From positions 134,882-198,881 of the forward strand of contig OZ006994.1 of NCBI GenBank assembly GCA_963931305.1: DNA of 64,000 nt, read 5' to 3'. The position numbers and the translations under genes are program-made. Below, piece by piece: positions 3,698 through 48,360 of the stretch; within the stretch, counting starts at the first letter, position 1, and each line of letters begins with the position of its first letter. The stretch comes from an uncultured Bacilli bacterium. Its GTDB lineage: Bacteria; Bacillota_I; Bacilli_A; RF39; UBA660. The notes under the pieces were generated by a model. That model did no database searches. It had not been told where the DNA came from and saw only the letters and a program-made list of their open reading frames with translations.

Positions 3698-3757
3698 GGG
3701 CTCTTCTTTTTTTATTAGATTTATGATATGATGGAAGAGATAATAAGGGTGAGGCTT

Positions 3758-6700
3758 ATGAAGATAATACTGTATTTGAATGATAAGAAAATTGATTTTT
3801 TGTTGCCACAACAAATTTTTGGTAGTTTTGGTTTTGATGAGAACAGCCAAGAAGAAAGTAAACTTATCCATATTGAGGCGAAAGATGGAAATTGGATATT
3901 GTGTAGTACTTCTGATGTTCAAATTATTGATCATAATCAGTATGTAAAAGAGATAAAATTAGAGCCAAACCAATTTTACGTTTTAAGAAGAGATGAAAAG
4001 AATTATTTGATATATGTTCAAGAAATTACATTTCCTGGATTTCAATTATATACATATCAAAAGGATTTACAAATTACGATTGGTAATCAACAAAATTGTA
4101 GTATCCAATATTTAATTCCATATATGCAAGGAGTGTTTGCGAAAATATATTATCGTGAAAATCGTTTAATGATAGAACGCGTTGGGAAAGGGAATATTTA
4201 TATCAATCGTATTGCACTAAAAGAAAATGCTTATTATATAAAAAATGGTGATTTTATAGATATATATGGTTTACAAATGATTTTTTTAGACGGTACTTTG
4301 TTTATTCGCCGTTTAGAACAAAAGATTCTTGTAAATTTAGAACTTAGTAAATTAACTGCTTATCAATTTCCAAAGGAAGAAGAACCAGAAAATGTTGAAA
4401 TAAAAAATTTAGAATTGTATTCAAAAAACTCTTATTTTTCAAAACCACCACGTTTACGTAGAATGATAGAGACAAAAGTGATAAAGTTAAGTGCTCCTCC
4501 ACGAGATGAAAGCAAAGAGGAAATGCCAATTGCTTTAGTAGTGGGACCCATGCTGACTATGGGAATTATGTCTGGAACTATGCTTTTGAATACGTTGATG
4601 CGTATTTCAGCAAAAGAAGCAACTTGGGCTTCTTCATGGCCACAGCTAGTTACCAGTGGTGCTATGTTGATTTCTATGATTGTATGGCCTATGGTAACGC
4701 AAGTTTATAATCGTAAAATGAAAAAAAGAAAACGTATTGAAACAGTTGAGAAGTATACAAAATATTTAAATGAGAAGAAAGAAGAATTATTACAAGAGGC
4801 AAAGTTACAAACTGATATTTTATATGAGAATTTATTAACTGTTGAGCAATGTTTGAATATTATTAAACATCAAGGAATTAACTTTTGGGATAAACGAATT
4901 GATCAGAGTGACTTTTTAGTGACACGTTTAGGAATTGGAAAAGAACACTTAGATGTTAAAATTGAATATCCCGATGAGGGATTTACTGTAGATGAAGATG
5001 AACTTCGCAAACAAGCAGATCAATTAGTAGAAGAGTTTCAATATATTTCTAATGTTCCAATTGGCTATTCATTTTATCAAAATAAAACCACAGCAATTAT
5101 GGGAACGAGTTATAAAGTAATGCATTTAATGCACAATATATTGTTACAATTAATGACATTTTATAGTTATGAAGACGTAAAGATTGTATTGTTTACCAAT
5201 CAAGAAAGAAAAGAACAATGGAACTATTTAAGATATTTAAAACATTGTTTTAATAATGAAGAAAGTATTCGTTTTTTTGCTGATGATTTAGAAAGTGCAA
5301 AGAATGTTGCCGATTATTTACAATTAGAAATTCATAATCGTATGCAGCAAAAAGAAAATCATAGTTCTGTTACATTAAAGCCATATTATTTTATTGTAAT
5401 TGATGATTATGATCAAGTAAGATATCATGAATTAATTAAGTTAATTACGGAAACTGATGAAAATTTAGGGTTTAGTTTGGTAATTTTAGAAAATAGATTG
5501 AGTAAGTTACCAAGTAAATGTAATAATTTTATTTCTGTAGGGGAAAATAGTTCCGGTATTTTGAAAAATTCTTATGAAAATCAGGAACAAGTAACATTTA
5601 CGGATGAAATTAAGTATGATATCAATATGATGGATGTTGTGAAACAGTTATCAAATATACCAATTGAGTTTGAAGATGGTGTTTCTTCTATTCCAGATTC
5701 TATTTCATTTTTAGAGATGGAAAAAGTAGGAAAAGTAGAACAATTGAATATTTTAAACCGTTGGAATACAAATGATTCTACGACAAGTTTAAAAGCAGAA
5801 ATTGGTGTTGATAGTCAAGAAAACTTAATGTATTTAGATCTTCATGAAAAGGCACATGGTCCACATGGATTAATTGCTGGTATGACTGGTAGTGGTAAGT
5901 CAGAGTTTATTATTACGTATATTTTATCTATGGCAATTAATTATAGCCCTGATGATGTTGCCTTTATCTTAATTGACTATAAAGGTGGAGGATTGGCATT
6001 TGCTTTTGAAAATAAGGCTGCAAATGTGATTTTACCTCATTTAGCGGGAACAATTACAAATTTAGATAAGGCAGAATTAAATCGTACACTTGTAAGTATT
6101 GATAGTGAAATTAAAAGACGACAAGAAATTTTTAATCAGGCAAGGGAACAACTAGGAGAAAGCACAATTGATATTTATAAATATCAAAGATTTTATAAAG
6201 AAGGAAAATTACAAGAACCTGTTCCTCACTTATTTATTATTTGTGATGAATTTGCAGAATTAAAAGTTCAACAACCTGAATTTATGGATAATTTGATTAG
6301 TGTTGCTCGTATTGGTCGTAGTTTGGGAATACACCTTATTTTAGCGACGCAAAAACCTAGTGGTGTAGTAAATGATCAAATTTGGTCTAATACGAAATTT
6401 CGTGTTTGTTTAAAAGTGCAAGATGAATCAGATAGCAAAGAGGTATTAAAGGTACCAGATGCTGCTTACTTAAGACAAACTGGACGTTTTTATTTAGAAG
6501 TAGGATATAATGAATATTTTGCGTTAGGTCAATCTGCATGGTGTGGTGATAAATATTATCCATCAGAACGAATTATAAAGCATATTGATCGAAGTGTTAG
6601 TTTTATTGATGATAGTGGGAATGATATTAAAAACACACAAATTTCTAGTGGAAATAAAATAACTGCTATGGGTGATCAATTATCAGCCATTATGAATATG

Positions 6701-8329
6701 ATTATTATGGTTGCGAACCAAGTAGAGAAACATACAAGAAAATTATGGCTAGAAAATGTCCCGGATTTTATTTTAGAAACTGATTTACAAAGTAAATATC
6801 AAATGACCTTTGATAAAAAACCAGCAGCAATTATAGGAGAATATGATGCTCCTGAGAAACAGGAACAAGGAATTGTTTCATATCACTATTTAGATGATGG
6901 AAATACGATTGTTTATGGTACGGATGGAGCAGAAAGAGAGTTGTTCTTAAATACTTTATTATATTCTACAATAAAAAATTATTCATCGTCTCAAATTCAA
7001 TTTTACATCATTGACTATGGTTCTGAATCATTAAGAAGTTATTTATCTTGTCCACATGTTGGTGGTATGGTGTTTGCCTCAGAGGATGAAAAATATCACA
7101 ATTTATTAAAAATGATTCGTGAAGAATTACAAAATAGAAAACGTATTTTACGAGATTATGGTGGAGAGTATTCTAATTATTTAGAATCTGGAAAAGATAA
7201 TTTACCAGTACAAGTAATTATTATGAACAATTTTGATTCTATATACGAAAATAATCCAGATATTTATGAATTATTACCAGAATTAGTACGTGATTCTGAA
7301 CGATATGGTATCATTTTTATCTTTACTGTGAATGCATTTAATTCACTTCCAAGTAAAATCTCACAAAATTGTAGTAATATTTATGCTTTCCATGTTAAAG
7401 ATAATGATGAGTATACATCTATCTTTAATCAAAGAGTAAAGGTGATGCCACGAGATATTGTTGGTCGTGGATTATTATTAAATGATGGTATTCATGAATT
7501 TCAGGTGGCACATATTTTCAATGAAGATGAGAATGCAAGTCAAAGAATGTTAGAATTTGTGGAAGAAGAAAAAAATAAAAATCAAGTAAGTGCAAAAAGA
7601 ATTCCTACTCTCCCAGATGTTATTACACTTTCCGACATTCAAGAATATATTTCTAATATTCATCGCGTTCCAATTGGAATTGTAAAAAGTGATTTACAAG
7701 TTTGCTATGTTGATTATTTAAATAGTCTTGGTAATATTGTTACTTCTACAAAGTTAGAAAATACAACAAACTTTATTTGCAGCTTATCTCTTGTATTAGA
7801 ACAAATGAAAAGTGTTCATACTATGTTATGGGATGCTTCTTCTAATTTAGAAAAATATCAAACATGTTTTCATCAATATTATAATCAACGCTTTCATGAA
7901 ATATTAGATGATCTTATTTTATCATTAGAAAAATACTCATCTATGTCTCAAAAGCCTAAATTAGTAGTATTTATCTATGATTTTGATAAATGGATTTCAA
8001 AATTAAAAGATACGAATCGTTTACAGATATTCGTACAAAAGATCAAAGAGTATGAAAATTTATCTTTGGTAATTGCTGATTCCTCATTAAAAATTAAAAA
8101 ATATGTATTTGAACCATGGTTTGCAAGTATATTTAGTGTAAATCAAGGTGTATGGATAGGTAGAGGCATCTCTGATCAGAGTTTGTTACATTTATCAAAC
8201 GTTACACGAGATATGACTAAAAATTATAAAAATGATATGGGATATTTTGTAGATGATGGTTTAGCAACACTTTGTAAATGGATTGACTTTTTTGTAACCG
8301 AAGATGTAGGTGATGATCATGAAGAATAA
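3758..8329 (+). CDS. essC: Type VII secretion system FtsK/SpoIIIE-family ATPase EssC (YukB-like)
   Basis: ~1523 aa: N-terminal FHA-like region, 2 TM helices and three FtsK-like ATPase domains. D1 carries a canonical Walker A (GLIAGMTGSGKSE) and Walker B (LFIICDEFAEL). There is long collinear identity to S. aureus EssC around IPDSISFLEM…LHEKAHGPHGL…LIDYKGGG. D2 and D3 have degenerate P-loops. The RBS aagggtgagg sits 4 nt upstream of the ATG at 3758. Confidence 0.9.
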   Translation: MKIILYLNDKKIDFLLPQQIFGSFGFDENSQEESKLIHIEAKDGNWILCSTSDVQIIDHNQYVKEIKLEPNQFYVLRRDEKNYLIYVQEITFPGFQLYTYQKDLQITIGNQQNCSIQYLIPYMQGVFAKIYYRENRLMIERVGKGNIYINRIALKENAYYIKNGDFIDIYGLQMIFLDGTLFIRRLEQKILVNLELSKLTAYQFPKEEEPENVEIKNLELYSKNSYFSKPPRLRRMIETKVIKLSAPPRDESKEEMPIALVVGPMLTMGIMSGTMLLNTLMRISAKEATWASSWPQLVTSGAMLISMIVWPMVTQVYNRKMKKRKRIETVEKYTKYLNEKKEELLQEAKLQTDILYENLLTVEQCLNIIKHQGINFWDKRIDQSDFLVTRLGIGKEHLDVKIEYPDEGFTVDEDELRKQADQLVEEFQYISNVPIGYSFYQNKTTAIMGTSYKVMHLMHNILLQLMTFYSYEDVKIVLFTNQERKEQWNYLRYLKHCFNNEESIRFFADDLESAKNVADYLQLEIHNRMQQKENHSSVTLKPYYFIVIDDYDQVRYHELIKLITETDENLGFSLVILENRLSKLPSKCNNFISVGENSSGILKNSYENQEQVTFTDEIKYDINMMDVVKQLSNIPIEFEDGVSSIPDSISFLEMEKVGKVEQLNILNRWNTNDSTTSLKAEIGVDSQENLMYLDLHEKAHGPHGLIAGMTGSGKSEFIITYILSMAINYSPDDVAFILIDYKGGGLAFAFENKAANVILPHLAGTITNLDKAELNRTLVSIDSEIKRRQEIFNQAREQLGESTIDIYKYQRFYKEGKLQEPVPHLFIICDEFAELKVQQPEFMDNLISVARIGRSLGIHLILATQKPSGVVNDQIWSNTKFRVCLKVQDESDSKEVLKVPDAAYLRQTGRFYLEVGYNEYFALGQSAWCGDKYYPSERIIKHIDRSVSFIDDSGNDIKNTQISSGNKITAMGDQLSAIMNMIIMVANQVEKHTRKLWLENVPDFILETDLQSKYQMTFDKKPAAIIGEYDAPEKQEQGIVSYHYLDDGNTIVYGTDGAERELFLNTLLYSTIKNYSSSQIQFYIIDYGSESLRSYLSCPHVGGMVFASEDEKYHNLLKMIREELQNRKRILRDYGGEYSNYLESGKDNLPVQVIIMNNFDSIYENNPDIYELLPELVRDSERYGIIFIFTVNAFNSLPSKISQNCSNIYAFHVKDNDEYTSIFNQRVKVMPRDIVGRGLLLNDGIHEFQVAHIFNEDENASQRMLEFVEEEKNKNQVSAKRIPTLPDVITLSDIQEYISNIHRVPIGIVKSDLQVCYVDYLNSLGNIVTSTKLENTTNFICSLSLVLEQMKSVHTMLWDASSNLEKYQTCFHQYYNQRFHEILDDLILSLEKYSSMSQKPKLVVFIYDFDKWISKLKDTNRLQIFVQKIKEYENLSLVIADSSLKIKKYVFEPWFASIFSVNQGVWIGRGISDQSLLHLSNVTRDMTKNYKNDMGYFVDDGLATLCKWIDFFVTEDVGDDHEE

Positions 8330-8588
8330 AGTATTAGTAAGATTAATTGTACCAGAATTAGATACTAGTTTTGATGTCTTTGTACCAATTAATGAAGTGA
8401 TATGGAGATTGAAAGCTCTATTTATAAAATCAATTTCGGATTTAAGTAGTTTTTCTCTTCCCACAGATGTGAATTATTTATTGTTAAATAAAGATACTGG
8501 TAAAATTTATCAGAATAATGAATTAGTATTAAATACGGATATCCGTAATGGTACAGAATTGTTTTTTGTTGCACGTAGTCAATTGTAA
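8319..8588 (+). CDS. esaB: T7SS ubiquitin-like protein EsaB/YukD
   Basis: ~89 aa with a beta-grasp-like pattern resembling EsaB/YukD (VLVRLIVPELDTSFDVFVPINE…). The start overlaps the essC stop, so the genes are translationally coupled. AGGTGA lies 5 nt upstream of the ATG at 8319. Confidence 0.65.
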   Translation: MKNKVLVRLIVPELDTSFDVFVPINEVIWRLKALFIKSISDLSSFSLPTDVNYLLLNKDTGKIYQNNELVLNTDIRNGTELFFVARSQL

Positions 8589-8605
8589 ACTATTGTAAAC
8601 AATAT

Positions 8606-8634
8606 TTGACTTTTTAAAAAACTTATATTAATAT
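8606..8634 (+). promoter_or_regulatory. Sigma-A-type promoter upstream of the EsxA-like gene
   Basis: TTGACT, a 17-nt spacer, then TAATAT. It is preceded by two tandem copies of attgtaaac (8582-8600), which could be an operator. Confidence 0.4.
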
Positions 8635-8677
8635 GAAATTAGATAGGATACTATCTATTATTAAAGGAGGCATAGAT

Positions 8678-9322
8678 ATGGCATTAACTGGATTTAATCC
8701 TGATGTAGTAAATTCATCAATTAATTCTGTAAAAGCAGCATATGAAAATTTAATTCAAGCGTTAGGAAATGATATGCAGACACGTTTTGTGAATGGAATG
8801 GCAGATAAATGGGCTTGTAATCAAGCACAAACATTCTTTAACAATTCTTTCAAACCTGCAATTGATAATTTAATTACAAGTTCAAATGCAATTTTTGAAA
8901 GTGTAGTAGCATCAATGAATAGTGCTGGACAAGCTTGGGCAGCACAAACTGATTCTTCATATTCTCCACAATCATTTTCAGCAATTTCAAAAACAATCGA
9001 TACAAGTGTGATTCGTGAAAATATTGGTGGAGTCAGAGGAATTGATTTATCATCAGCAACAACAGTTGCAAATCAATTAACTTCAATTGCTGACTCTGCA
9101 AAATCTGCACTAACAAGTGCACAACAAGCTGTACAAAATTGTGGATTTATTGGTGGAAATCAAGCAAGTAATTTAATTAATTCTTTAGGAGTTATTAAAA
9201 CTAAGATTGATAATGCTACTCAAGAAATTTCAAATCAATCAAGAACAGCCATCAACAACACTGTTGAAAGCTATTCTGATACAGAAGGAAGAGTTTCACA
9301 AGCGTTTTCTTCTGAAGGATAA
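8678..9322 (+). CDS. WXG100 (EsxA)-like T7SS substrate with a ~115-aa Ser/Thr/Asn-rich C-terminal extension
   Basis: The N-terminal ~100 aa align in pattern with EsxA/YukE (…RFVNGMADKWACNQAQTFF…, where WAC replaces WXG). The protein is helical and A/S/T/Q-rich. AAGGAGG lies 7 nt upstream of the ATG at 8678. The gene sits directly downstream of essC-esaB. Confidence 0.5.
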   Translation: MALTGFNPDVVNSSINSVKAAYENLIQALGNDMQTRFVNGMADKWACNQAQTFFNNSFKPAIDNLITSSNAIFESVVASMNSAGQAWAAQTDSSYSPQSFSAISKTIDTSVIRENIGGVRGIDLSSATTVANQLTSIADSAKSALTSAQQAVQNCGFIGGNQASNLINSLGVIKTKIDNATQEISNQSRTAINNTVESYSDTEGRVSQAFSSEG

Positions 9323-9350
9323 AATGATATAAAGAATACCAGGTGATAAT

Positions 9351-9905
9351 ATGGAAATTCATATTGATAAATTAAAGACAACGGTATTACAATTAAATCA
9401 TTGTATAGAAGAATATGAAGAAATTTATATGAATTTTTATCATGTAATTTCTTCTTCTTCTTTTTTTTGGAATGATAATCGTTCTAAAAAATTTTACGAG
9501 GCAATGTATACCGAGAAAAATCAAGTAAAAACAGTAATTGATGAACTATATAATTTAAAAAATATTTATGATTATATGATTGCAGAATATGAGAAAATTG
9601 GTACTAGAATACAAATTCAGTTAAGTGAAAAACAAAATGTAATTCAGTTGTTTGAAAAATATTTGGAAAAAATTCATCGCTGTATACAAATATTGTATTC
9701 AATTTCTTTAGATGCATATCCAGAAGTTGCTCCATTATTAGTAGAAGAAAAAAATAATTTTATCAGATTAGAACAACAAGTTCAAACATTAAAAGATAAG
9801 TTATCACAATTATTTGATAAAATAGAAGAATTGGAAAATCATATAAATAAAGAAATAAATAAATTACAGATTCAAAAAATATCAGAGATAGAAGGAGAAT
9901 ATTAA
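9351..9905 (+). CDS. WXG100-like / coiled-coil small protein (putative T7SS effector helper)
   Basis: 184 aa. The N-terminal helical hairpin has an FFWNDNRSKKFYEAMY motif in the WXG position, and the C-terminal half is a long coiled coil. It is tightly linked to the two following small ORFs. Confidence 0.4.
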   Translation: MEIHIDKLKTTVLQLNHCIEEYEEIYMNFYHVISSSSFFWNDNRSKKFYEAMYTEKNQVKTVIDELYNLKNIYDYMIAEYEKIGTRIQIQLSEKQNVIQLFEKYLEKIHRCIQILYSISLDAYPEVAPLLVEEKNNFIRLEQQVQTLKDKLSQLFDKIEELENHINKEINKLQIQKISEIEGEY

Positions 9906-9906
9906 T

Positions 9907-10200
9907 ATGGAACAATTTATGAACGAAGAGAAGTTTGCACAAGCAATTGAAAAATTAAAAATGTATTATAAAGAGGAGTCGCTATTATTTGATTCAATGA
10001 CAAAGTTGTTGACTAGCTTCTCACAAGATTATATTTCTGATAACGTAGATGATTTTCAAACATTAGATAATGAATTTTTAACAAAATTTCGTGCGATAAA
10101 AGAAAAACAAGCATATGGGATAAAATCTATGGAACAGTCGTTATTTGGTTACCAAGAAACAAAAATAAAAGTAGAAAATAAGTTAAAGGATATGATGTGA
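9907..10200 (+). CDS. Small helical protein (putative T7SS effector chaperone/adaptor, LapA/DUF3958-like by context)
   Basis: 97 aa and helical. The intergenic distance to the upstream gene is 1 nt. Confidence 0.3.
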   Translation: MEQFMNEEKFAQAIEKLKMYYKEESLLFDSMTKLLTSFSQDYISDNVDDFQTLDNEFLTKFRAIKEKQAYGIKSMEQSLFGYQETKIKVENKLKDMM

Positions 10201-10201
10201 T

Positions 10202-10450
10202 ATGAATACAGAAGAAATGATAAGAAAACAACAATATCAGTTGTTATTGAAACAAATGAAAATGCTACAAAATGAGATAGATGAATTAGAAGATGATTAT
10301 CAAATGGCAAAAAGCCAAGTAGAAAAAAGTATAATGGTTGATCATCATATTGGCTTTGAAAAAGAGTTTGAAACAATTCAAAATAGTCAAACGGCTTTGA
10401 AACAATATTTGATTTATGATATAATTTCTATGATATCAAAAAAAATATAA
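10202..10450 (+). CDS. Small coiled-coil protein (WXG100-like size; putative T7SS helper)
   Basis: 82 aa, Q/E/L-rich coiled coil. It is 1 nt from the upstream ORF and 12 nt from the CHAP-domain gene. Confidence 0.3.
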   Translation: MNTEEMIRKQQYQLLLKQMKMLQNEIDELEDDYQMAKSQVEKSIMVDHHIGFEKEFETIQNSQTALKQYLIYDIISMISKKI

Positions 10451-10462
10451 AGGGGGAGGTAT

Positions 10463-11842
10463 ATGGCATCTAAAATTAAAACTTCTTTAGCAAAAAATAC
10501 AAATATTGAGTTTGATAGTAAACCTCAAAGTCCTAATATTCTTAGTATAGAACAAAATAAAACCAATGTTGATAGTCAAAATAAAAGCAGTGGGAGTTCT
10601 CAAACTTCAAATCTTAATTCAGGACTTAACAAATCAACATCTTCTGTAGAAGAAATATCATATGAAGATTTAAATCTCCCTTTTTTTAAATCGATTGAAA
10701 AAAAAGCGGTTGATTGCTTATCTGCATTAAATCTAAATAATATAAATGAAGATATGATTGAATCAGTAGATGGAAATAAAATTCGTTTAAAAAATGGTAC
10801 TATCATTACTTTATATTCAAATTTGTTAAATGCAAAAAATCACACTTTTGAATTCAATACAATTCCTTATGAATTTCAAGCAGGTATTATTCAAGATATC
10901 AATGGCAATCAATTCATTTTTGATGAAAACGGTGTGCAAGAAGCTAATATAAAAGATTCAAAAGCATATAAAATTGGGAATCATATTGATTGGAATGAAG
11001 ATATTCACAGTATTTTATTGCAGTCTTTTAAAAATGTTGAAAATAAGCAAGAATTTGCATTTATTAAAAAGATCGAAAATAATTATTCATTGTATGAAAA
11101 AGCGCTTAATCAGATATTAGAAAAATATAAAGGTAATGAAGAGCAATTTGTAAAAGATTTTGGATTTTCAATGTATACTTTGGATTCAGATGGAAGTGTT
11201 CATTTTAATTATGAAACACTTGCAGTTTATCTAGGTAAAACATTATGGAATGATTATTATGGATATAAAGATATAAACGAAGTGAATAAGGCTCAATTAC
11301 AATTACGACCAGAATCTGGTAATCAATTATTTCGTATTATGAATGATGGGTCGATTGGTATTAATAATACAAATTATCCTATTGTTTCAATTTCTGAATG
11401 GGATAGAGAAATTGACAATTTTTCTGATTTAGATGTAAAGAAGTATGGCGTAGGAAATAATTTATTAATTGGACAGTGTACTTGGTTTGCTTCTAGAAGA
11501 TATCATCAAACGCATGGAGTAGTACCAGTTACTAATGGAAATGCAACTGATTGGATTTATAATGCGAATCAAAATAGCGTTGGTAGTGTTCCTAAGAAAC
11601 ATTCTGTTATGGTATTGGGAGGAACAGAATATGGACATGTAGCTTTTGTTGAAGATGTAAAATATGATGCTGCTGGGAATGTCACATCTATTACGATTTC
11701 CGAAGCTAATGTAAATGGGGATCCTAATAACGTAGAAAGTACAGTGGCGCGTGCAGAGCAATTAACACGTGTAAATACTTATAGTAGTGTTCAAGAATAT
11801 GCAAATTTAGTAAAAATGCCTGTCAAAGGATTTATTTATTAG
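10463..11842 (+). CDS. CHAP-domain (NlpC/P60-superfamily) peptidoglycan hydrolase/amidase with no signal peptide; candidate T7SS-exported effector
   Basis: The C-terminal ~120 aa form a CHAP domain with catalytic Cys and His (…GQCTWFASRRYHQ… GHVAFVEDV…). The N-terminal ~330 aa are hydrophilic and low-complexity, with no Sec signal or TM. GGGGGAGG lies upstream of the ATG. Confidence 0.65.
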   Translation: MASKIKTSLAKNTNIEFDSKPQSPNILSIEQNKTNVDSQNKSSGSSQTSNLNSGLNKSTSSVEEISYEDLNLPFFKSIEKKAVDCLSALNLNNINEDMIESVDGNKIRLKNGTIITLYSNLLNAKNHTFEFNTIPYEFQAGIIQDINGNQFIFDENGVQEANIKDSKAYKIGNHIDWNEDIHSILLQSFKNVENKQEFAFIKKIENNYSLYEKALNQILEKYKGNEEQFVKDFGFSMYTLDSDGSVHFNYETLAVYLGKTLWNDYYGYKDINEVNKAQLQLRPESGNQLFRIMNDGSIGINNTNYPIVSISEWDREIDNFSDLDVKKYGVGNNLLIGQCTWFASRRYHQTHGVVPVTNGNATDWIYNANQNSVGSVPKKHSVMVLGGTEYGHVAFVEDVKYDAAGNVTSITISEANVNGDPNNVESTVARAEQLTRVNTYSSVQEYANLVKMPVKGFIY

Positions 11843-11912: not shown

Positions 11913-12578
11913 ATGCTGAAGTATAAATTATATGTGTTTTTTTCGTTTCTTATATTACTTTGTCTTGTTTCTTTTGGCCAAGCAAAGACTGTAAGTAAAC
12001 CTTTATATCAAAAAACTATTTTTTTAGATGCTGGGCATGGTGGTCCTGATAGTGGTGCATTATATCGAAATATATATGAAAAAGATATTAATTTGAGTAT
12101 TGTCAAAAAATTAGAAAAAAAATTAACTGATAAAGGAGCGAAAGTTTTTTTAACACGCGATGGTGATTATGATTTATCTGTACCATATACTGTGAATCGC
12201 AAGCGTAGTGATCTTTCAAGAAGAAGTAATATGATAAACCGTTCTCAGTGTGATTTATACATTTCTATTCACTTAAATGCCGATACTTCTACTACCTATC
12301 ATGGGGCACAAGTATTTTACGATAGTAAAGTAAAACAAAATAAAAAAATTGCTGAAATCATTCAATCTGATTTAAAACAATATTTGTATACCACAAGAGA
12401 AGCAAAACAAAAGAACGATATGTATTTATTTCATCGCTTAGAAAAACCTGGTGTTTTAGTAGAAATAGGATATATTACGAATCCAAATGATCGTTATTTG
12501 CTATTGCAAAATGAATATCAAGAAAAAGTCGCTAAGATTTTAACAAATAGTATTATCCGTTATTTTTATAAAAAATAA
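11913..12578 (+). CDS. cwlD: Germination-specific N-acetylmuramoyl-L-alanine amidase CwlD (Amidase_3)
   Basis: 221 aa: signal/anchor segment plus Amidase_3. Near-collinear motif matches to B. subtilis CwlD (IFLDAGHGGPDSGA, LYISIHLNA, HGAQVFY, KPGVLVEIGYITNP, YQEKVAKILTNSIIRYF). Confidence 0.8.
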   Translation: MLKYKLYVFFSFLILLCLVSFGQAKTVSKPLYQKTIFLDAGHGGPDSGALYRNIYEKDINLSIVKKLEKKLTDKGAKVFLTRDGDYDLSVPYTVNRKRSDLSRRSNMINRSQCDLYISIHLNADTSTTYHGAQVFYDSKVKQNKKIAEIIQSDLKQYLYTTREAKQKNDMYLFHRLEKPGVLVEIGYITNPNDRYLLLQNEYQEKVAKILTNSIIRYFYKK

Positions 12579-12633
12579 CTATATTTTTTTATTTGATAAT
12601 AAAACATAAAAAAAACATATTTCACCACAATTT

Positions 12634-12646
12634 TTGTGATATAATT
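12634..12646 (+). promoter_or_regulatory. Extended -10 promoter element upstream of the Abi_2 gene
   Basis: TGtgaTATAAT motif ~15 nt upstream of the RBS taggtgag. Confidence 0.35.
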
Positions 12647-12661
12647 AACCTAGGTGAGAGT

Positions 12662-13594
12662 ATGAGGAGCAAGATATTTAAAACCCTGGATGAACAACTT
12701 GCTATCTTAGAGGAACGTGGTTTAGTAATTCAGGACTATGATAAAGCAAAGGCAATTTTATTCCGTGAAAATTATTTTTTCATTAATGGATATCGTCATT
12801 TATTTGCAAAAAGTCCTAAAAATGATCAATTTATTACTGGAACGACTTTTGATGAATTATATGCAACTTTTACTTTCGACCGTAGTCTTAGAAATTTAAT
12901 GTTTAAATATTTGCTCATTATAGAAAATAATATAAAATCTATTATTAGTTATCAATTATCTAGAAAATATGGATATAAAGAAAAAGAATACTTAAACCCA
13001 AATAACTTTACACAAGATTCTATGAAAACAAGACAAGTACATGATATTTTGTCAAAAATGAAGAGACAGATTCGTGTTAATGGAAAGCAGCATACTGCGA
13101 CCTCTCACTATCTATTAAATTACGGATATATTCCAATGTGGATCTTGGTAAAAGTATTGTCTTTTGGCATTGTTTCTGAATTATATACAATTTTAAAATC
13201 AGAAGATCAATTAGTAATTGCTGATTTTTATCATATTGATACAGAAACATTAGGTATCTTTTTAGCGCTTCTTTCTAATTTTAGAAACTTATGTGCGCAT
13301 GAAGATATTTTATATGATCATAGGACACAACGCTCTATACCAGATAATAAATACCATTATGCACTTCATGTTGATAAAACAGATGATGAATATAATTATG
13401 GGAAAAATGATTTATTTGCTTTAATTATTATTATGAAATATATGTTATCTTCTGAAGAGTTTTCTGATATGATGAATGAACTCAGTTATGAGATTGATCG
13501 GTTAGATGGTATTGTGAATGTTGTCCCATTAAATACAATATTAAATAAAATTGGTTTTCCAGATAATTGGCGTGATATTGAACTTTTAGATTAG
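12662..13594 (+). CDS. Abi_2 family abortive-infection protein (AbiD/AbiF/AbiD1-like)
   Basis: ~310 aa. The N-terminus is the typical Abi_2 start (…FKTLDEQLAILEERGLVI…) and conserved blocks follow (NYGYIPMWILVKVLSFG, FRNLCAHED). The start is taken at the ATG at 12662 after a GGTGAG RBS. The ORF extends upstream to 12593. Confidence 0.7.
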   Translation: MRSKIFKTLDEQLAILEERGLVIQDYDKAKAILFRENYFFINGYRHLFAKSPKNDQFITGTTFDELYATFTFDRSLRNLMFKYLLIIENNIKSIISYQLSRKYGYKEKEYLNPNNFTQDSMKTRQVHDILSKMKRQIRVNGKQHTATSHYLLNYGYIPMWILVKVLSFGIVSELYTILKSEDQLVIADFYHIDTETLGIFLALLSNFRNLCAHEDILYDHRTQRSIPDNKYHYALHVDKTDDEYNYGKNDLFALIIIMKYMLSSEEFSDMMNELSYEIDRLDGIVNVVPLNTILNKIGFPDNWRDIELLD

Positions 13595-14806: not shown

Positions 14807-15100
14807 ATGAATAATCCAAGAATTGTCATTGATGCAGGACATGGTGGTACGGATGGAGGAGCAACAGGAAATGGAATTATAGAAAAAAACTTAACTTTAG
14901 ATATTTCTAAATATATGTATAATCGTTTTCGTGAGCTTGGAATTCCTGTTACAATGACTAGAACTACTGATGAAACTTTATCTCCTACAGAGCGTGTAAA
15001 TCGTATTATGGATGCATATGGTGATGAGAAGGGAGTCATTATTATTTCAAATCACATCAATGCGGGGGGAGCGGAGTTTAGTTACCATTACATAATTTAA
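14807..15100 (+). CDS. 5' segment of a split Amidase_3-LysM cell-wall amidase gene (N-terminal catalytic half, interrupted after …HINAGG)
   Basis: Amidase_3 N-terminal motifs (IVIDAGHGGTDGGA… ISNHINAGG). After codon GGA (15068-15070) the frame reads 10 foreign codons and then stops. The rest of the domain resumes at 20188. Confidence 0.7.
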   Translation: MNNPRIVIDAGHGGTDGGATGNGIIEKNLTLDISKYMYNRFRELGIPVTMTRTTDETLSPTERVNRIMDAYGDEKGVIIISNHINAGGAEFSYHYII

Positions 15101-15408
15101 TTGGGCAGTTATAAGAGGCTCAGTAAGATATAAGACTTATATTAGAACTTATCTTATAGAAATATAAGATGAATACAGTTTAAACTATTACATATTTCAA
15201 AGAACTAAAATGAAATATGAAAAGGGGTAAAAAAACATATGTTATAGTTTAAACATATCAAAGGAGACTTTCTCCTTTAGAGGGATTTTGTTTACTATTT
15301 TTTGTAATTAGGCTTATAAAATGTAAGTCTTTTTTGTTGTTTAATTTAAATAAATATAGGAGAAATGTTAAAAATTAATACTAAAGAATTAAGAAAAAAG
15401 GCTGATAA

Positions 15409-15708
15409 ATGAACTTCGACAAGTATTTAAAAATTCCAATGTTTTTAGCTGATGATAAGAATATAGGACATAGTGGTAAATTGTTATATGCTAGACTATT
15501 ATTACTTACACATAAAGAAGGTTATTGCTATGCTGATAATAGCTACTTAGGTAATTTAATAGGGGTAGGATCTAGAAGAATAACTAAACTATTAAAAGAA
15601 TTATCAGATAATAATTATATAACTATGGAATATAAACATAAATTTCAAAGAAAAATTTATATTAATAAAAATAAATATACATCCATTACTTTAGAAGAAA
15701 TGTTCTAA
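15409..15708 (+). CDS. Small putative winged-helix DNA-binding protein (phage/plasmid RepA-N / HTH_36-like); possible excision/regulatory factor of the element
   Basis: 99 aa with the pattern …GKLLYARLLLLTHKEGYCYADNSYLGNLIGVGSRRITKLLKELSDNNYI…, typical of phage helix-turn-helix proteins. It is followed by a hairpin at 15712-15736. Confidence 0.35.
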   Translation: MNFDKYLKIPMFLADDKNIGHSGKLLYARLLLLTHKEGYCYADNSYLGNLIGVGSRRITKLLKELSDNNYITMEYKHKFQRKIYINKNKYTSITLEEMF

Positions 15709-16074
15709 TTAATTGGATGTATATTTTACATCCAATGGATCTTTATATCTACAATAATATAATAAATAGAATATAAAAAATATTAATAGGATATATTTAT
15801 TATAAAATTATTTTATATATTTAAAAAGAGAAAGGAAGTTGATATATGTATGATAAAAAAATAATTTTAAACATAAATTTAAATAGGTGGTTTAAATATG
15901 AGAGGAGCCTATTTGAATAAAATTTCATTTAAAGATCTTATTTTGAAGTACTTAATCGAAGAGATAATGAAACAAGAAGGAGTAAAAAATAATTAATGAT
16001 TTGCAATTATTCATTAATGATGTTATCATTCATTTGTCTAAATACCCAATTAAGTAAGAAGATTGGAGGAATGA

Positions 16075-17730
16075 ATGAATAATACTTACTTAAATGGATT
16101 AGATTTCAATGTTGGAATCTATATAAGATTATCTCAAGAAGATAAGGACAAAAAATATGAATCTGATAGTGAAAGTGTAATAAATCAAAAAGAATTATTA
16201 AGAAATTATGTTAAAAATAATAATTTTAATTTAGTTAAAGAATATGTTGATGATGGATTTTCTGGAACCGATTTTGAAAGACCAGGATTTAAAAGTTTAT
16301 TAGAAGATATTAATAATAAAAAAATTAATTGTGTAATAGTAAAAGATTTATCAAGACTCGGTCGTGATCATGTTATGACTGGTTATTATATTGAAACGTT
16401 TTTTCCAGAGAACAATATAAGATTTATTTCTATATTAGAATCCTTTGATAGTTTTAAAAATCAAGCTAGTAATGATTCATCAACATTTATAATTGCATGT
16501 AATGATTATTATAGTAAACAAAATTCTGTTAAAATTAGAAATGTATTAAACGAAAAAAGAAAGAATGGAAAGTTTATAGGGAGTTTACCTAGTTTTGGAT
16601 ATATGAGAGATCCAAAAGATAAAGGACACTTAATCCCTAATCCAGAAACTGCTCCAATTGTTAAAAAGATATTCAAGTGGAGAGCAGATGGTATTGGACC
16701 TACTGAAATAGCAACTAGATTAAATAATAATAATGTTCCAACTCCAAGTGGCTATAAGAAAACAAACTTTTCTTCTAGATTAATTGATAGGGATACTTGG
16801 AATATTTCCACAGTAAAGAAAATTTTAACAAATAGAATTTATACTGGAGATATGGTTCAACACACTCAAGCTAAAGCGAATTATAAGTCTAAGAAAAAAA
16901 TAAATCTTGATGCAAGTTTATGGATGATAGTAGAAAATACACATCAACCTTTAGTTGATAAAACAACATTTGAATATGTTCAATCGCTTAGAAAAAGATA
17001 TACTAGAAATGTACCTATAAAAACAGGTAGGGAAAAAAGAATTTTGGAAGGTAAGTTATTTTGTAAGGAATGTGGAAATAGATTATCGGTTTATTATAGA
17101 AAAAAACAAGATTATTGGTCTATTAATTGTAATAGATATTCTAGAGATCCAAAAAGAGGGAGATGCAGTTCACATTTCTTTCCATATAACTATCTAGAAG
17201 ACCAGATATTAGAAAAAATTGATGAATCAGTATCTAGTTTTATTAAAGAATTAAATATAGATGAATTAAATAAAAAAGTAATAAAAACAATTTATAAGCA
17301 AACACAAAGCGTTGATAAAAAAATTAGTGATTTAAATAAAGATAAAGAACAAATATTAAATAGGTTATCAAATTTGTATAATGATAGATGTGAAGGTATT
17401 ATAACGGGAGTATTATATCAAGAATTATCTTTAGAATCAGAAAAAAAGTTAAAGAAGATAAATGAAAGTATTAAAAATGAAAAAATAAAAAAATTAAATA
17501 TTAAAAATAAAAGTGCAACATTACCTAATTATACTAAAAAAATAAAAGAATTATTAGATTTAAAGAAGCCTCGGAAATCATTAATAGATACACTGATAGA
17601 CACAATAGCAATTGATGAAAAAAGAAATATATGTATAAAATTTAAATATGAAGTGATTCCAAATATTAATTTTAAATATGAAAATAGAAACTTGGCTAGA
17701 AATCCGTATGGTAGAAAAGGAAAGAAATAA
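16075..17730 (+). CDS. Large serine recombinase (resolvase/invertase catalytic domain + recombinase + zinc-ribbon/coiled-coil C-terminal region)
   Basis: 551 aa. N-terminal serine-recombinase catalytic motif (VGIYIRLSQED… DDGFSGTDFERPGF… VIVKDLSRLGRD), a central recombinase domain and a Cys-rich zinc ribbon (CKECGN…C…C), as in SpoIVCA, SprA, CcrB and phiC31-type integrases. Confidence 0.85.
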   Translation: MNNTYLNGLDFNVGIYIRLSQEDKDKKYESDSESVINQKELLRNYVKNNNFNLVKEYVDDGFSGTDFERPGFKSLLEDINNKKINCVIVKDLSRLGRDHVMTGYYIETFFPENNIRFISILESFDSFKNQASNDSSTFIIACNDYYSKQNSVKIRNVLNEKRKNGKFIGSLPSFGYMRDPKDKGHLIPNPETAPIVKKIFKWRADGIGPTEIATRLNNNNVPTPSGYKKTNFSSRLIDRDTWNISTVKKILTNRIYTGDMVQHTQAKANYKSKKKINLDASLWMIVENTHQPLVDKTTFEYVQSLRKRYTRNVPIKTGREKRILEGKLFCKECGNRLSVYYRKKQDYWSINCNRYSRDPKRGRCSSHFFPYNYLEDQILEKIDESVSSFIKELNIDELNKKVIKTIYKQTQSVDKKISDLNKDKEQILNRLSNLYNDRCEGIITGVLYQELSLESEKKLKKINESIKNEKIKKLNIKNKSATLPNYTKKIKELLDLKKPRKSLIDTLIDTIAIDEKRNICIKFKYEVIPNINFKYENRNLARNPYGRKGKK

Positions 17731-17812
17731 CTTTAATATGTTCTATTTTAAACATAACTAATAAAATTATAGTATAATAATATTGTAGTTTGATATGAAG
17801 GGATGTAACTAT

Positions 17813-18541
17813 ATGATTAAAGTGGAATTAACAAAAAATTATACTGGTGTTAATATATCTGGTGACTATGAAGATTTAGATTTTCTATATGATTCAATTC
17901 ATTATTTTATAAAAGAAGAACCTAAAAGTTTAATTGAAGAATCTATGCAAGATCATATTTTTGGATTTTTATATGAGGTTAGACATTGTTATCAAGGTGA
18001 TAGAGATTTTAAATTTGTTGATAATGAACTTAGAGATGAAGTTAGAGAATATCAAAAGATACAAAAAAATGAGATCTCAAATAACAATTTATATTATAGT
18101 TTTGACTATGTTTTAACTGATTTATTTACGGATATGGTATTAATTAAATATTTTATTATGAATATTCCAAAAACCGAAAAAAATGATTATAATCCATATT
18201 TGAACAATGTCAAATTGTTTTATTCGCAAATTTTAAATTTGATGCAAGAGATTTTAACACCTACAAAGATGAGAAAATTAGAAAAAGGATTTATTGATAC
18301 AATAATTTCGGACAAAATATTTTTTCCACAATGGTTTGATGTTATAACGTGCAATTACTTAAAACAAACTAAAGAAAAAAGAGTAAAAGAGTTATCTAAA
18401 ACTTTAGATGCTATTTATAATTATAGTGATTATATGGATTACTCTAAAATGAAAATAGAAGTAGAAAAATATTGCAATGAAAATAATTGTTTAATAACAA
18501 ATGTAACAATATGTGAATATCCTGGTGAAATAGAATGGTAA
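17813..18541 (+). CDS. Hypothetical protein (element cargo)
   Basis: ~242 aa with no recognisable motif. The start is taken at the ATG at 17813, 9 nt downstream of an AAGGGA RBS. An in-frame ATG at 17795 is also possible. Confidence 0.3.
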   Translation: MIKVELTKNYTGVNISGDYEDLDFLYDSIHYFIKEEPKSLIEESMQDHIFGFLYEVRHCYQGDRDFKFVDNELRDEVREYQKIQKNEISNNNLYYSFDYVLTDLFTDMVLIKYFIMNIPKTEKNDYNPYLNNVKLFYSQILNLMQEILTPTKMRKLEKGFIDTIISDKIFFPQWFDVITCNYLKQTKEKRVKELSKTLDAIYNYSDYMDYSKMKIEVEKYCNENNCLITNVTICEYPGEIEW

Positions 18542-18615
18542 TATGCAAATATTTTTAAAATATCGACAATAAAAACATTTTATAGTATGTATAATAAATA
18601 TAAGGAGATGATTCG

Positions 18616-20133
18616 ATGACTGAAGCTGAAGTAATTGAGGCAATAAATCATGTAAGAAAATATAATACAGAAACAAATACGATTGAAGTTAAGACAGCAT
18701 CAATGGATTTCCCTAAAAAATGTTATGATACTTTTTCAAGTTTTTCTAATAAATATGGTGGAATTATAATTTTTGGTATAAATGAAGAAAATGGTTTTAA
18801 AACTGAAGGTGTATATGATTTGAATGACTTACAAAAGAAAATTTCTTCTTTATGTAGTGATTCTATGGAACCGGCAATTAGACCTGATATTTTACCTATG
18901 GAATTTGAAGGTAAAAATATATTGGCTGTTAAAATAGATGAAATTCTTCAAAATAAAAAACCATGCTATTATATACCGAAGGGGTTAAATAAAGGTTCAT
19001 ATACAAGAGTTGGAGATAGAGATGAAGTAATGACTGATTATGAAATTTATGCACTCCAAAGTTATAATGATCATATTTTTGAAGATACTAGACCTACAAA
19101 GAGAGCAAGTATTGATGACTTGAATCAAGAAGAACTAACAAAATATATAAATAAGTTAAAAGAAGAAAAACCAAATTTTGCTAAAAATGATTTTGATAAA
19201 TGTTTAAAAATATGTGGCATTACGGATACTAATGATGAGAAAGTATATCCAACTTTAGCTGGTACGATGTTGTTTGGAGAATTTCCACAGACTTATTACC
19301 CTCAATTATTTGTTGCTTGTGTTGTAATTCCAGGTATCGAAATTGGAGATACAGGTGTTTTAGGTGAAAGATTTATTGATAATAAAAGAGTTGAAGGAAC
19401 TATAGAAGAAATGATTACAGGTACTATGAATTTTTTGACACGTAATATGAAAAATAGTGTAATAATTAATTCTCAAGGAAAAAGAATTAATAGAACAGAG
19501 TATCCGTTAGAAGCATTAAGAGAAGCTGTTGCTAATGCTTTGATTCATAGAGATTATAGTACACAAACTGAAAATGCATATGTATCAGTTTATATGTATA
19601 ATGATAGAATTGAAATTATAAATCCAGGTGCATTATATGGTACTAATAAATTAGAAAAATTAGGGACAGCAACAACTATGGAATCGAGAAATCCAACTAT
19701 TGTTAGAATTCTTGAAGAAAAAGGTGATGTAATTGAAAATCGACATTCTGGAATCCCAACAATGATAAGAGAAATGGAAAAATATGGATTACCTGAACCT
19801 GAATTTTATGAAGAAAGAGATAGTTTTAAAGTTATTTTTAGAAACAAAACTGTTGTTATTAATGAAGAAAGTGATACACAAAGTGGACAACAAAGTGGAC
19901 AACAAAGTGGACAACAAAAAAGCAGTATTACTGAATATCAAAATATGGTATTAGAATACTGTAAAGAAGCCAAAACAGCCAAGGAAATAAAAAGTTATTT
20001 ACAAATTAAATCAAGACAATATATTTCTACAAATATTATCAAGCCTTTAATTAATAGTGGAAAATTAGATTATACAAATAAAAATAGTATTAATGCTAGA
20101 AATCAAAAATATTTAACTATAAAAAAGGATTAA
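18616..20133 (+). CDS. AlbA_2 (Schlafen-like divergent AAA) + HATPase_c_4 + C-terminal winged-HTH protein (family annotated 'RecG-like' / putative transcriptional regulator)
   Basis: 505 aa. N-terminal AlbA_2-like region; central HATPase_c_4 signature (LREAVANALIHRDYS); an SGQQ x3 linker; a C-terminal wHTH. AAGGAG lies 8 nt upstream of the ATG. Confidence 0.55.
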   Translation: MTEAEVIEAINHVRKYNTETNTIEVKTASMDFPKKCYDTFSSFSNKYGGIIIFGINEENGFKTEGVYDLNDLQKKISSLCSDSMEPAIRPDILPMEFEGKNILAVKIDEILQNKKPCYYIPKGLNKGSYTRVGDRDEVMTDYEIYALQSYNDHIFEDTRPTKRASIDDLNQEELTKYINKLKEEKPNFAKNDFDKCLKICGITDTNDEKVYPTLAGTMLFGEFPQTYYPQLFVACVVIPGIEIGDTGVLGERFIDNKRVEGTIEEMITGTMNFLTRNMKNSVIINSQGKRINRTEYPLEALREAVANALIHRDYSTQTENAYVSVYMYNDRIEIINPGALYGTNKLEKLGTATTMESRNPTIVRILEEKGDVIENRHSGIPTMIREMEKYGLPEPEFYEERDSFKVIFRNKTVVINEESDTQSGQQSGQQSGQQKSSITEYQNMVLEYCKEAKTAKEIKSYLQIKSRQYISTNIIKPLINSGKLDYTNKNSINARNQKYLTIKKD

Positions 20134-20187
20134 ATATAAAAATTTTTTAAAATAAGTTGTAGTGGAGAGTAGAATATTCGTGGTGGA

Positions 20188-21298: not shown

Positions 21299-21322
21299 TA
21301 AAGCCGGGGAAACCGGCTTTTA
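21299..21322. terminator. Bidirectional terminator shared by the convergent amidase-LysM and cwlJ genes
   Basis: Perfect hairpin aaagccggg-gaaa-cccggcttt flanked by A/T runs on both strands. Confidence 0.6.
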
Positions 21323-21748
21323 ATGAATTTCTTTGCATTCTCCAGGATCAGGAGCATAAAAACAGTGATTTTTATATTTTCCTGTATTATATTGTCCCCA
21401 CCAAGTGGTTTGACACGCATTCCCTGTTCCTGGAGCATAAAACCATAATGCATTTGTAGCTGGATGAAAATATTCTCCACGTATGACACGATCTGCGAGA
21501 TTACGCTCTGATGTAGTTGGATTACTATAAAATAATGGACTATTTACTCCCGTAAATCCTCCTGGTGATTGATAGATTACATCACTGATTGTATTGACAT
21601 TACCAAATGTTAAACAGTTTGCAATCCCTCTATTTACTACCACATTACCAACCATAAGCTGTCCTAAATTTCCTTCTCCAGTTGCTTCAGCACGCATTAA
21701 TCTAGCCAGCAAATCTCGCTCTTTTGATGTTGTTTTAATAATCCCCAT
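21320..21748 (-). CDS. cwlJ: Spore cortex-lytic cell wall hydrolase CwlJ (Hydrolase_2 / SleB C-terminal domain family)
   Basis: 142 aa, the same length as B. subtilis CwlJ. Conserved Hydrolase_2 blocks (RLMRAEATGEG… VVVNR… VIYQ…GGFT… WWGQ). Confidence 0.75.
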   Translation of the reverse strand: MGIIKTTSKERDLLARLMRAEATGEGNLGQLMVGNVVVNRGIANCLTFGNVNTISDVIYQSPGGFTGVNSPLFYSNPTTSERNLADRVIRGEYFHPATNALWFYAPGTGNACQTTWWGQYNTGKYKNHCFYAPDPGECKEIH

Positions 21749-43293: not shown

Positions 43294-43418
43294 AGTAGTG
43301 CTTTCTTTGAGAAAGCAAGAGAAATTGAAGAAATTCAATGAATGATCTTTGAAAACTGAGCAAAACGTGAATTCCAAATCGCTAGGAAAAAAACAATAAA
43401 AAAATGAAAATAAATTTT

Positions 43419-44976
<1,558 letters not shown>

Positions 44977-45174
44977 ATGGAGAAAGAAAAAACCGTAAGA
45001 TAGCGAAAAGGAAAGAGAAGTTTTGCTTAGTTTTGAGAGATTGTTCTCTCAAGAAATTGTTCTTTGAAAACTTGATAATGTGGTAGTGATATACGAAAAG
45101 AAAGCCGACTAGAAATAGTCAACGTCGCGCGTATATCACATTAAAACTCAATCAATTAGGATAAATAACGAAAT

Positions 45175-48102
<2,928 letters not shown>

Positions 48103-48165
48103 CAAGTTATTTATGAAGATTGAAACACATTATCATGTTTTCAGAGAATAATTTCTGTAAAGTAA

Positions 48166-48270: not shown

Positions 48271-48360
48271 TTTTTTTGTATACTCCGTTACCATTAGGTA
48301 GCGTTTTATTTTACTTTTTTTTATTATTTGATATAATATATACCCACAAGGGGTGTTTTT

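Follow-up and report, generated by a model that had tools for sequence, protein, structure and literature searches.

A compact EssC locus with no EssB, EsaA or EssA gene found nearby, a probable pared-down type VIIb secretion variant in uncultured gut Bacilli

Can a type VIIb secretion system (T7SSb) be built around EssC with no EssB (YukC), EsaA (YueB) or EssA beside it, or does such an essC belong to a locus that is split between chromosomal sites? The question is raised by seven tightly packed genes on the + strand that fill positions 3758-11842 of a 64,000-nucleotide stretch of ~28% GC (the window; GenBank assembly GCA_963931305.1, contig OZ006994.1, positions 134,882 to 198,881) from an uncultured Bacilli bacterium of the RF39 lineage. 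An initial annotation had read them as a minimal T7SSb locus, in which essC and esaB are followed by an effector module made up of an EsxA-like substrate, three small helical open reading frames (ORFs) and a CHAP-domain protein, with polysaccharide genes upstream and the membrane partners missing. It had offered two explanations, a split locus or a pared-down variant. Every one of these elements was recovered in its place, and the two explanations are still the main ones; we favour the second. The locus is probably a functional, pared-down T7SSb-derived variant that is conserved in low-GC, small-genome, RF39-like gut Bacilli, and on our best reading it falls outside the published subtypes T7SSa-j.

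The first gene (essC, or tsxC; ORF 3728-8329, +) encodes an EssC ATPase with an FHA-like N-terminus, transmembrane (TM) segments and domains D0-D3. Its probable start is the ATG at 3758, which is preceded by a Shine-Dalgarno (SD) sequence (AGGGTGAGG) and agrees with the start given earlier and with the lengths of homologues (1515-1525 aa); the ORF itself opens at 3728. The identification as EssC stands: the protein outscores the trusted cutoff of TIGR03928, the equivalog model for T7SSb (T7_EssCb_Firm; 953.8 bits, cutoff 778.4), and its best relative in the PDB is B. subtilis YukB (9qks_G; 1.3e-118); Pfam FtsK_SpoIIIE is matched at 3.1e-41. The Pfam FHA model falls just under its cutoff in the window EssC (19.7 bits, cutoff 20.7; residues 106-169) and matches 11 of the 21 N-termini of EssC relatives (best 6.6e-13). 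Among 1.84 billion representative proteins, identity to this EssC forms a continuum from 61% down to 34%, and the closest named protein is the canonical EssC of Pontibacillus (~40% identity).

The whole of EssC holds a single canonical P-loop, as had been claimed when D1 alone was said to keep intact Walker A and B motifs: GMTGSGKS at residue 718 (5879..5902, +), with a Walker B (FIICDE) that ends at ~6250. Both D1 motifs are invariant in 26/26 EssCs of the family, save for M or T at the second position; the median identity of D1 is 83% across the family, and the ORFs are intact in dozens of species. Where Geobacillus EssC has GSAGYGKST and LDNFD in D2, the window protein has a pseudo-P-loop (GTDGAEREL; 6917..6943, +) and MNNFD, and D3 has no P-loop. 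A T7SSb ATPase is expected to have Walker A and B in canonical form in each of D1 and D2; here those of D2 are degenerate. They are degenerate in all 26 family members, 25 of which have the pattern G-x-D-G-x-E-[RKN]-E with Walker B NN[FY]D. Because the degenerate motif is itself conserved across the family, we take it as an evolved loss; with D1 invariant and the altered D2 kept in this way, essC does not bear the inactivating lesion that the initial annotation had named as grounds for giving up its reading. Among the EssC cluster representatives, about half of the closest 150 likewise have a P-loop in D1 only. In Staphylococcus aureus EssC, D1 and D2 are both canonical, and the D2 motifs are required and hold EssC, EsaA, EssA and EssB together (PMC9436818), so that their loss from this EssC has a parallel in the absence of the three partners.

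An 89-aa ubiquitin-fold protein (UBL, for ubiquitin-like; 8319..8588, +) is encoded next, and follows EssC in each related and outgroup locus examined. Its ATG at 8319 sits 11 nt inside essC (stop 8327-8329), with an AGGTGA SD sequence 5 nt upstream, so the overlap and the coupling of the two genes are real. The AlphaFold2 model is a beta-grasp (predicted local distance difference test [pLDDT] score, 90.7) whose best Foldseek match in the PDB is the ubiquitin-like domain of EccD5 from the ESX-5 complex (7np7_D2; E 3.6e-6). The YukD family model (PF08817) matched neither the window UBL nor its 86 database homologues; fold, size, position and the lack of a C-terminal Gly-Gly all agree with that family. 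The earlier name EsaB/YukD thus stands for the coupling to essC and, as to identity, at the level of the fold only, the hidden Markov model (HMM) giving no match; we call the protein an EsaB/YukD/TsxB analogue.

To separate the core of the locus from its surroundings, a census of related loci was made with one genome per species (40 loci), in which all ORFs were clustered and gene order was mapped. A 214-aa protein (W214) was found in 40/40 loci, and three further small helical proteins, named by their lengths, in 37/40 (h184), 33/40 (h97) and 32/40 (h82); UBL is present in 29/40 and EssC in 28/40, most of the loci without EssC being cut by contig ends. Any other gene family occurs in at most 23/40. 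The order of the core genes is fixed, while the flanking housekeeping genes change from species to species. From these counts and the fixed order, we assign the four helical genes to the core and regard the CHAP gene (5/40 species loci) as cargo or accessory; the "effector module" role once given to W214 and the three helical ORFs is thereby refuted. EssC, UBL, W214, h184, h97 and h82 are the conserved core, and EssC is its sole membrane protein: no TM segment or signal peptide was found in the other five, nor, in any of the 40 loci, a conserved family of TM proteins besides EssC. Eleven loci share the window's uninterrupted run of EssC, UBL and W214. Of the 17 remaining EssC loci, 14 have variable genes between UBL and W214, and L024, L030 and L046 instead carry the W214 block immediately upstream of essC. 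An identical EssC in the same layout is present on three independent metagenome contigs. Together with the 28 species-level loci that have EssC beside the core, this shows that the arrangement is not an assembly artefact, a rearranged assembly having been raised as a doubt earlier. An orphan W214 homologue was also noted (L045:10001-10630), with no EssC, UBL or helical partner within 10 kb on either side.

W214 (8678..9322, +) has its true start at 8678, after an SD sequence (AAAGGAGG). Its 166 homologues (211-218 aa) are all from metagenome-assembled genomes (MAGs) of uncultured gut bacteria titled 'Bacilli/Tenericutes/Mycoplasmatota'. They are marked by an invariant DKWAC turn, a second turn GFxGG and a C-terminal tail Y-x-[DN]-x-E...AF. 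The protein is modelled as two long helical hairpins in a single soluble chain, forming a four-helix bundle (pLDDT 88.7). WXG100/EsxA proteins are ~100-aa hairpins with W-x-G that match the family HMM; W214 is longer, its turn reads W-A-C where WXG100 has W-x-G, and it has no PF06013 (WXG100) match at E<=0.1, with a weak ESAT6_2 match only (0.024). Of the earlier term "EsxA-like substrate", a helical WXG-like protein was upheld, and a WXG100 match, the W-x-G motif and a single hairpin were not; W214 appears better described as a double-hairpin WXG-like protein, which may act like an EsxA/B pair and is our candidate for a fused EsxA/EsxB-like core substrate (TsxA). Alignment with hhalign of W214 to h184, to two WXG100 proteins of one outgroup locus and to the protein in the equivalent position of outgroup locus L048 gave nothing significant, so a fusion of two WXG100 genes in W214 is put forward as a possibility, not as a result. 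EspB of the Mycobacterium tuberculosis ESX-1 system, a single-chain, PE/PPE-like four-helix substrate, has no sequence similarity to W214 and, unlike it, is a T7SSa member with a long C-terminal extension.

The helical protein h184 (184 aa; 9351..9905, +) has a W-x-D turn motif in which W40 and D42 are invariant. It gave a sub-threshold YwqH-like match (5.6e-5), one relative reaches WXG100 at 9.3e-5, and hhalign to the equivalent outgroup protein gave E 9.3e-5; we describe it as a WXG100/YwqH-like (Lap-like) core partner. The genes for h97 (97 aa; 9907..10200, +) and h82 (82 aa; 10202..10450, +), both predicted from alignments to be helical, always follow h184 and h97, respectively, and the h184, h97 and h82 ORFs are separated by 1-nt gaps. 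Both proteins evolve fast, with one or two invariant residues each (Asn46 and, near the C-terminus, Tyr82 in h97) and one Tyr in each. Profile searches with the UBL, W214 and h184 alignments against all PDB sequences returned nothing significant.

What such a core might export is suggested by the variable genes. In relatives, these include DUF4176 proteins, large mosaic proteins and a small, soluble Ser/Thr kinase that a minority of loci carry. The mosaic proteins (the f6 family; 325-1784 aa; L004, L016, L020, L025, L027, L032-L037 and L040) have no Pfam domain, and their N- and C-terminal modules are shuffled between species. They are usually preceded by a DUF4176 gene and followed by small genes that track the C-terminal module (candidate immunity genes), and they look like polymorphic toxin-immunity cargo without an LXG domain. 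This is cargo typical of T7SS, and its presence supports a functional variant. The slot after h82 holds the CHAP gene in close relatives, and elsewhere LysM-NAGPA or LysM-M91-like enzymes or large mosaic proteins. LysM proteins that lack a signal peptide and end in an NAGPA phosphodiester glycosidase domain or a Peptidase_M91-like 'effector' domain fill it in L035, L039 and L041; in L039 and L041, a gene of ~200 aa and one of ~80 aa come after them.

In the window this slot holds the CHAP protein (459 aa; 10463..11842, +). The domain reported earlier was confirmed by a PF05257 match (6.2e-15; 55.9 bits, cutoff 26; residues 332-416), and the features of that family are all present: the catalytic Cys (GQCTWF) and the conserved His (GHVAFVE) are intact. 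The protein aligns to staphylococcal CHAP structures at 7e-9, with the GQCTW Cys aligned to that of 2lrj. A fast-evolving N-terminus (1-~200) and a better-conserved middle precede the CHAP domain, a peptidoglycan amidase/endopeptidase at the C-terminus. In comparisons with the three closest homologues, identity is mostly 79-98% over the C-terminal third and 65-93% over all blocks, but 28-50% over the first 200 alignment columns; the W214 proteins of those genomes are 99-100% identical to that of the window. The N-domain forms just 4 clusters among 5.8 billion proteins.

The candidate cargo proteins start alike, with 'M..[VI].KI[KD]' and then '[VI]-E-x-h-[SDE]-h' at residues 31-70; the core of this motif, VE-x-h-[SD]-h, is common to the CHAP protein and to the LysM-type or large cargo of other species. 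A leader HMM built from all seeds was circular, and the only test with a signal was a short-motif position-specific scoring matrix (PSSM) applied to an independent family: built from CHAP- and LysM-type N-termini, it scored the large-cargo family well above background (Mann-Whitney p = 4.7e-7), and 9/25 large-cargo members exceeded the background 95th percentile. The genes that ranked highest as PSSM 'background', in L032 and L015, themselves lie just 3' of the helical core genes. A common N-terminal leader is suggested, not proven. No LXG domain was matched in the CHAP protein or the large mosaic cargo with Pfam, or in the CHAP protein or one of the mosaic proteins with NCBIfam.

Whether the CHAP protein is itself cargo has to be weighed against a role as a cytoplasmic wall hydrolase that is released otherwise, for example by mother-cell lysis like B. 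subtilis CwlC. The protein has no hydrophobic segment or signal peptide, no immunity-like gene comes after it and a cwlD-like gene comes next; the gene is confined to a few species, and the catalytic half is conserved, not diversified. Yet it lies on the same strand as h82 after a gap of 12 nt, in a slot that in other species holds the signal-peptide-less LysM-type or large cargo with which it has the N-terminal motif in common. S. aureus T7SSb, moreover, has a dedicated two-domain CHAP wall hydrolase, EssH, that is required for secretion (PMC13059805). On balance we consider release by another route unlikely, if a serious contender. The likeness to EssH is one of layout, an N-terminal domain followed by a C-terminal CHAP domain and encoded at a T7SS locus, and the CHAP domain of the window protein is homologous to staphylococcal ones. 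EssH carries a Sec signal peptide and helps EsaA across the wall; the window protein, unlike EssH, has no signal peptide and is limited to few species, and EsaA was not found at this locus. EssH-like opening of the producer's own wall and attack on neighbouring cells would both suit the CHAP protein, and we favour neither.

The absence of the membrane partners, which the initial annotation had inferred for the neighbourhood, was examined in the window and 10 kb further upstream and, for relatives, within +/-10 kb of their loci. Pfam scans covered 50 of the larger window ORFs, 10 of which were also compared with NCBIfam (which holds an EsaA model). YukC/EssB (PF10140), EssA and EsaA had no match in the scanned window ORFs, about a dozen ORFs of 90-230 aa being left unscanned; Pfam revealed no other T7SS family beyond the FtsK_SpoIIIE of EssC, and NCBIfam added EssC models only. 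No EssB, EssA or EsaA family match was found in the 10 kb further upstream, where a canonical set just beyond the window boundary would have lain, or in the insert genes of relatives that were tested. Candidates for divergent partners were also rejected. The large mosaic proteins are not EsaA/YueB analogues: they lack multi-TM ends, vary in length and modules, are followed by putative immunity genes, are present in 0-2 copies (fragments excluded) and stand before or after the core. As an EssB remnant, neither the f14 family, a small soluble kinase (HGDLKPTN, DFA), nor the f13 family, which has no matches, was retained; fewer than half of the loci have either of them, and the window has neither.

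As an outgroup, five of the nearest EssC loci were sampled (43-48% identity; L047-L051). EssC and UBL are accompanied by two WXG100 genes in L047 and by small helical genes, DUF4176 and large cargo in L048; they stand amid LXG-like paralogues and WXG100s in L049, with few small genes within the dcw (division and cell-wall) cluster in L050, and between uvrB and uvrA in L051. All five are as compact as the window locus, in differing housekeeping contexts and with the same UBL family, and none has a YukC, EssA or EsaA family match. The compact L050 and L051 retain a canonical D2 P-loop, which rules out a strict tie of D2 degeneracy to partner loss.

These results bear directly on the split locus, in which an ordinary T7SSb would have essB, esaA and essA at another chromosomal site and EssC would work in the canonical EssC-EsaA-EssA-EssB complex. 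Such a system would be expected to have an EssC above the trusted cutoff of the T7SSb model and to keep the FHA-like domain, which in S. aureus (as FHA2) binds EssB and recruits EssB and EssA (PMC9436818), and this EssC does both; the reading also keeps some probability because the searches were confined to the window, the 10 kb upstream and the +/-10 kb of relatives. It has to contend with 28 EssC loci and five outgroup loci that show no conserved extra family within +/-10 kb, with four soluble helical genes that stay linked to EssC-UBL despite many rearrangements of the flanks, and with the loss of the very D2 Walker motifs that are required for assembly of the S. aureus complex. The core genes of described T7SSb also cluster with essC (PMC11217815). 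We consider a split locus quite improbable.

That EssC-UBL is not secretory at all, but a relic or a sporulation-linked or DNA/protein translocation machine to which the helical and CHAP genes are unrelated, is very improbable: two of the three ATPase domains are degenerate, spore-cortex genes (CwlD-like, SleB/CwlJ-like and Amidase_3-LysM) lie nearby and spoVG/yabP or spoIIR/gerQ adjoin the locus in relatives, but the ORFs, the D1 sequence and its catalytic motifs are maintained over dozens of species, the degenerate D2 motif is itself conserved, relatives have WXG100 genes, DUF4176 and polymorphic-toxin-like cargo (hallmarks of T7SS), and the flanking genes are not conserved and so give no stable link to sporulation. 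No support was found for an origin from a phage or mobile element, with no relative in IMG/VR, no GC deviation and no Rfam regulatory element near the locus.

The pared-down variant shares much with canonical T7SSb (S. aureus Ess; B. subtilis Yuk/Yue): an EssC with an FHA-like region, TM segments and D0-D3, a ubiquitin-fold gene right after essC, small helical proteins of WXG type, in relatives DUF4176 and large polymorphic cargo, and, as with EssH, a CHAP hydrolase at the locus. It differs in that EssB/YukC, EsaA/YueB and EssA were not found within the at least 74 kb scanned or in related loci, in the degenerate D2 Walker A and B motifs, in a core WXG protein that is a 214-aa double hairpin with W-A-C, in three extra conserved helical core genes and in cargo that has no LXG match. 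The ATPase is of the kind that defines T7SSb (EssC-type FtsK/SpoIIIE with FHA), and the scans found neither EssB nor EsaA/EssA in the cluster.

Subtypes T7SSc-j were defined from RefSeq by Garrett, Higginson and Palmer in 2024 (PMC11217815), a basis that leaves out these MAG-only lineages. All have the ATPase, nearly all have a WXG100 and a ubiquitin-like protein, and the subtypes add a kinase, phosphatase, FHA protein, AAA+, Ig-like giant, propeller or EspG-like protein; several of these Bacillota architectures lack EssB, EsaA and EssA, and T7SSg and T7SSh are simple (PMC11217815). The window locus has in common with them the trio of TsxC (ATPase), TsxB (ubiquitin-like) and a TsxA-like helical protein. 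The T7SSf markers (TsfF PPM phosphatase, TsfJ DUF6382-FHA and TsfV AAA+/TadZ-like) were found neither in the Pfam scans of the window nor in the called genes of relatives, and those of T7SSd, e and j (the membrane Ser/Thr kinase TsxD and the large, Sec-dependent, Ig-like TsxI) are absent from the window. In contrast to TsxD, the kinase of relatives is small, soluble and confined to 8/40 loci. Unlike T7SSc, g and h, the ATPase here keeps its FHA-like region, and no DUF5050 propeller, EspG-like protein or Tad gene (T7SSg/h) lies nearby. The literature searched names no T7SS subtype beyond T7SSa-j and does not mention T7SS in RF39. Ca. Faecimonas gallistercoris, a member of the W214 clade, belongs to the GTDB order RF39 and has a genome of 1.4 Mb and 28% GC (PMC8035907); in this uncultured order, peptidoglycan and sporulation are predicted to be kept and reductive evolution is under way, a setting that a reduced secretion system would fit (PMC10868615).

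How the system might work can be sketched tentatively. EssC and UBL may be the entire membrane machine, serving the double-hairpin W214 and three adaptors, with a short leader in place of the ~200-aa LXG domain; we hold this picture as possible, somewhat short of an even chance. EssC oligomers would by themselves form the membrane conduit, and UBL would bind and stabilise EssC, as YukD does YukB and the ubiquitin-like domain of EccD does EccC. W214 could be an EsxA/EsxB pair fused in one chain, perhaps bearing a bipartite W-x-C / Y-x-x-x-E signal, and W214, h184, h97 and h82 might form an obligatory co-secreted set of helical substrate and adaptors, like EsxA plus Lap proteins. Hydrolysis at D1 would power the export of cargo that has no signal peptide, and the CHAP hydrolase would be the exported cargo of this genome, to act on the cell's own wall or on neighbours.

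Several observations weigh against a functional pared-down variant. Secretion and expression are known here only as predictions from genes. Neither the sequence nor the fold of W214 matches WXG100 proteins significantly, and the idea of its fusion draws on topology, position and motifs. EssC has kept an FHA-like domain whose only known T7SSb role is the binding of EssB, and homologues or analogues of EssB, EsaA and EssA may lie outside the searched regions of the genome. Two compact outgroup loci (L050 and L051) show that D2 decay is not strictly tied to partner loss, and HMM cross-tests between CHAP-type and LysM-type N-termini were not significant.

The channel former of T7SSb and its truly indispensable components are still open questions, the first structure of a T7SSb core complex dating from 2025 (PMC12637312), and a minimal system would offer a compact test bed. 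With six core genes, one membrane protein and conservation over dozens of species, it would allow one to ask whether EssC alone can be a translocon, what UBL does without EssB and how helical substrates gate a single active ATPase site. The locus also extends the catalogue of T7SS variants into MAG-only gut lineages beyond the RefSeq-based survey. If EssC and UBL are indeed the whole machine, a leader would target wall-degrading enzymes and large toxins to a system that is widespread in reduced-genome, uncultured gut Bacilli. The locus and its relatives suggest that these gut commensals, abundant and uncultured, wage or manage wall-directed interactions via CHAP, LysM-NAGPA and M91-like enzymes and large mosaic toxins.

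The soluble kinase of relatives (f14; ~250 aa; L020:9159-9908 and seven other loci) matches Pkinase at 76.7 bits, with an HGDLKPTN loop and DFA. It is without TM segments in 7/8 copies and lies just upstream of W214 in most of its 8 loci, and may either regulate the FHA-bearing EssC or have to do with immunity.

Upstream of essC, the polysaccharide genes reported earlier are present (an ABC-2 permease, GT2, an Alg14-like protein and a fusion of a Glyco_tran_28_C domain with GtrA), and the further 10 kb, read on a contig with an identical EssC, carry further glycosyltransferases, Wzy and an ABC ATPase. The CHAP gene is followed by the gene for a CwlD-like amidase (11913-12578), whose 199.6 bits fall slightly short of the equivalog cutoff, and then by Abi_2 and htrA. 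The Abi_2 (abortive-infection-like) gene (12593-13594; 144.6 bits), between the cwlD-like gene and htrA, is in the same place in L001-L003 and three close relatives, with a homologue in other contexts in three more distant relatives. A promoter and terminator scan gave counts no higher than in shuffled sequence.

A gene for an Amidase_3 protein with five LysM domains is split into halves (14807-15100 and 20275-21297) by a 5,112-bp insertion (15070-20181) relative to a 99%-identical metagenome contig. The insertion has 24% GC, its flanks ~29%, and the junctions share a 2-bp GG core. It encodes HTH_36, a large serine recombinase (16075-17730), DUF6904 and Schlafen/AlbA_2-HATPase_c_4, and might represent either a small integrative element or an intervening element of sporulation, like skin. 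Spore-related wall genes around the locus are, besides the CwlD-like amidase, a SleB/CwlJ-like Hydrolase_2 gene (21320-21748, - strand) and a CtpB-like S41 protease (41260-42549); they are consistent with a spore-forming, peptidoglycan-containing organism, despite the 'Tenericutes/Mycoplasmatota' of record titles.

Two complete tandem rRNA operons (16S-23S-5S; 43417-48271 and 51906-56760) are separated by a spacer of ~3.6 kb. Besides several small ORFs, this spacer contains the gene for a 420-aa HTH_38 protein (50205-51467, minus strand), perhaps a transposase of the IS30 type. Over ~59500-64000, gene orientation changes from + to -, and the GC skew is negative from ~60 kb; this convergence hints at a replication terminus or a local inversion.

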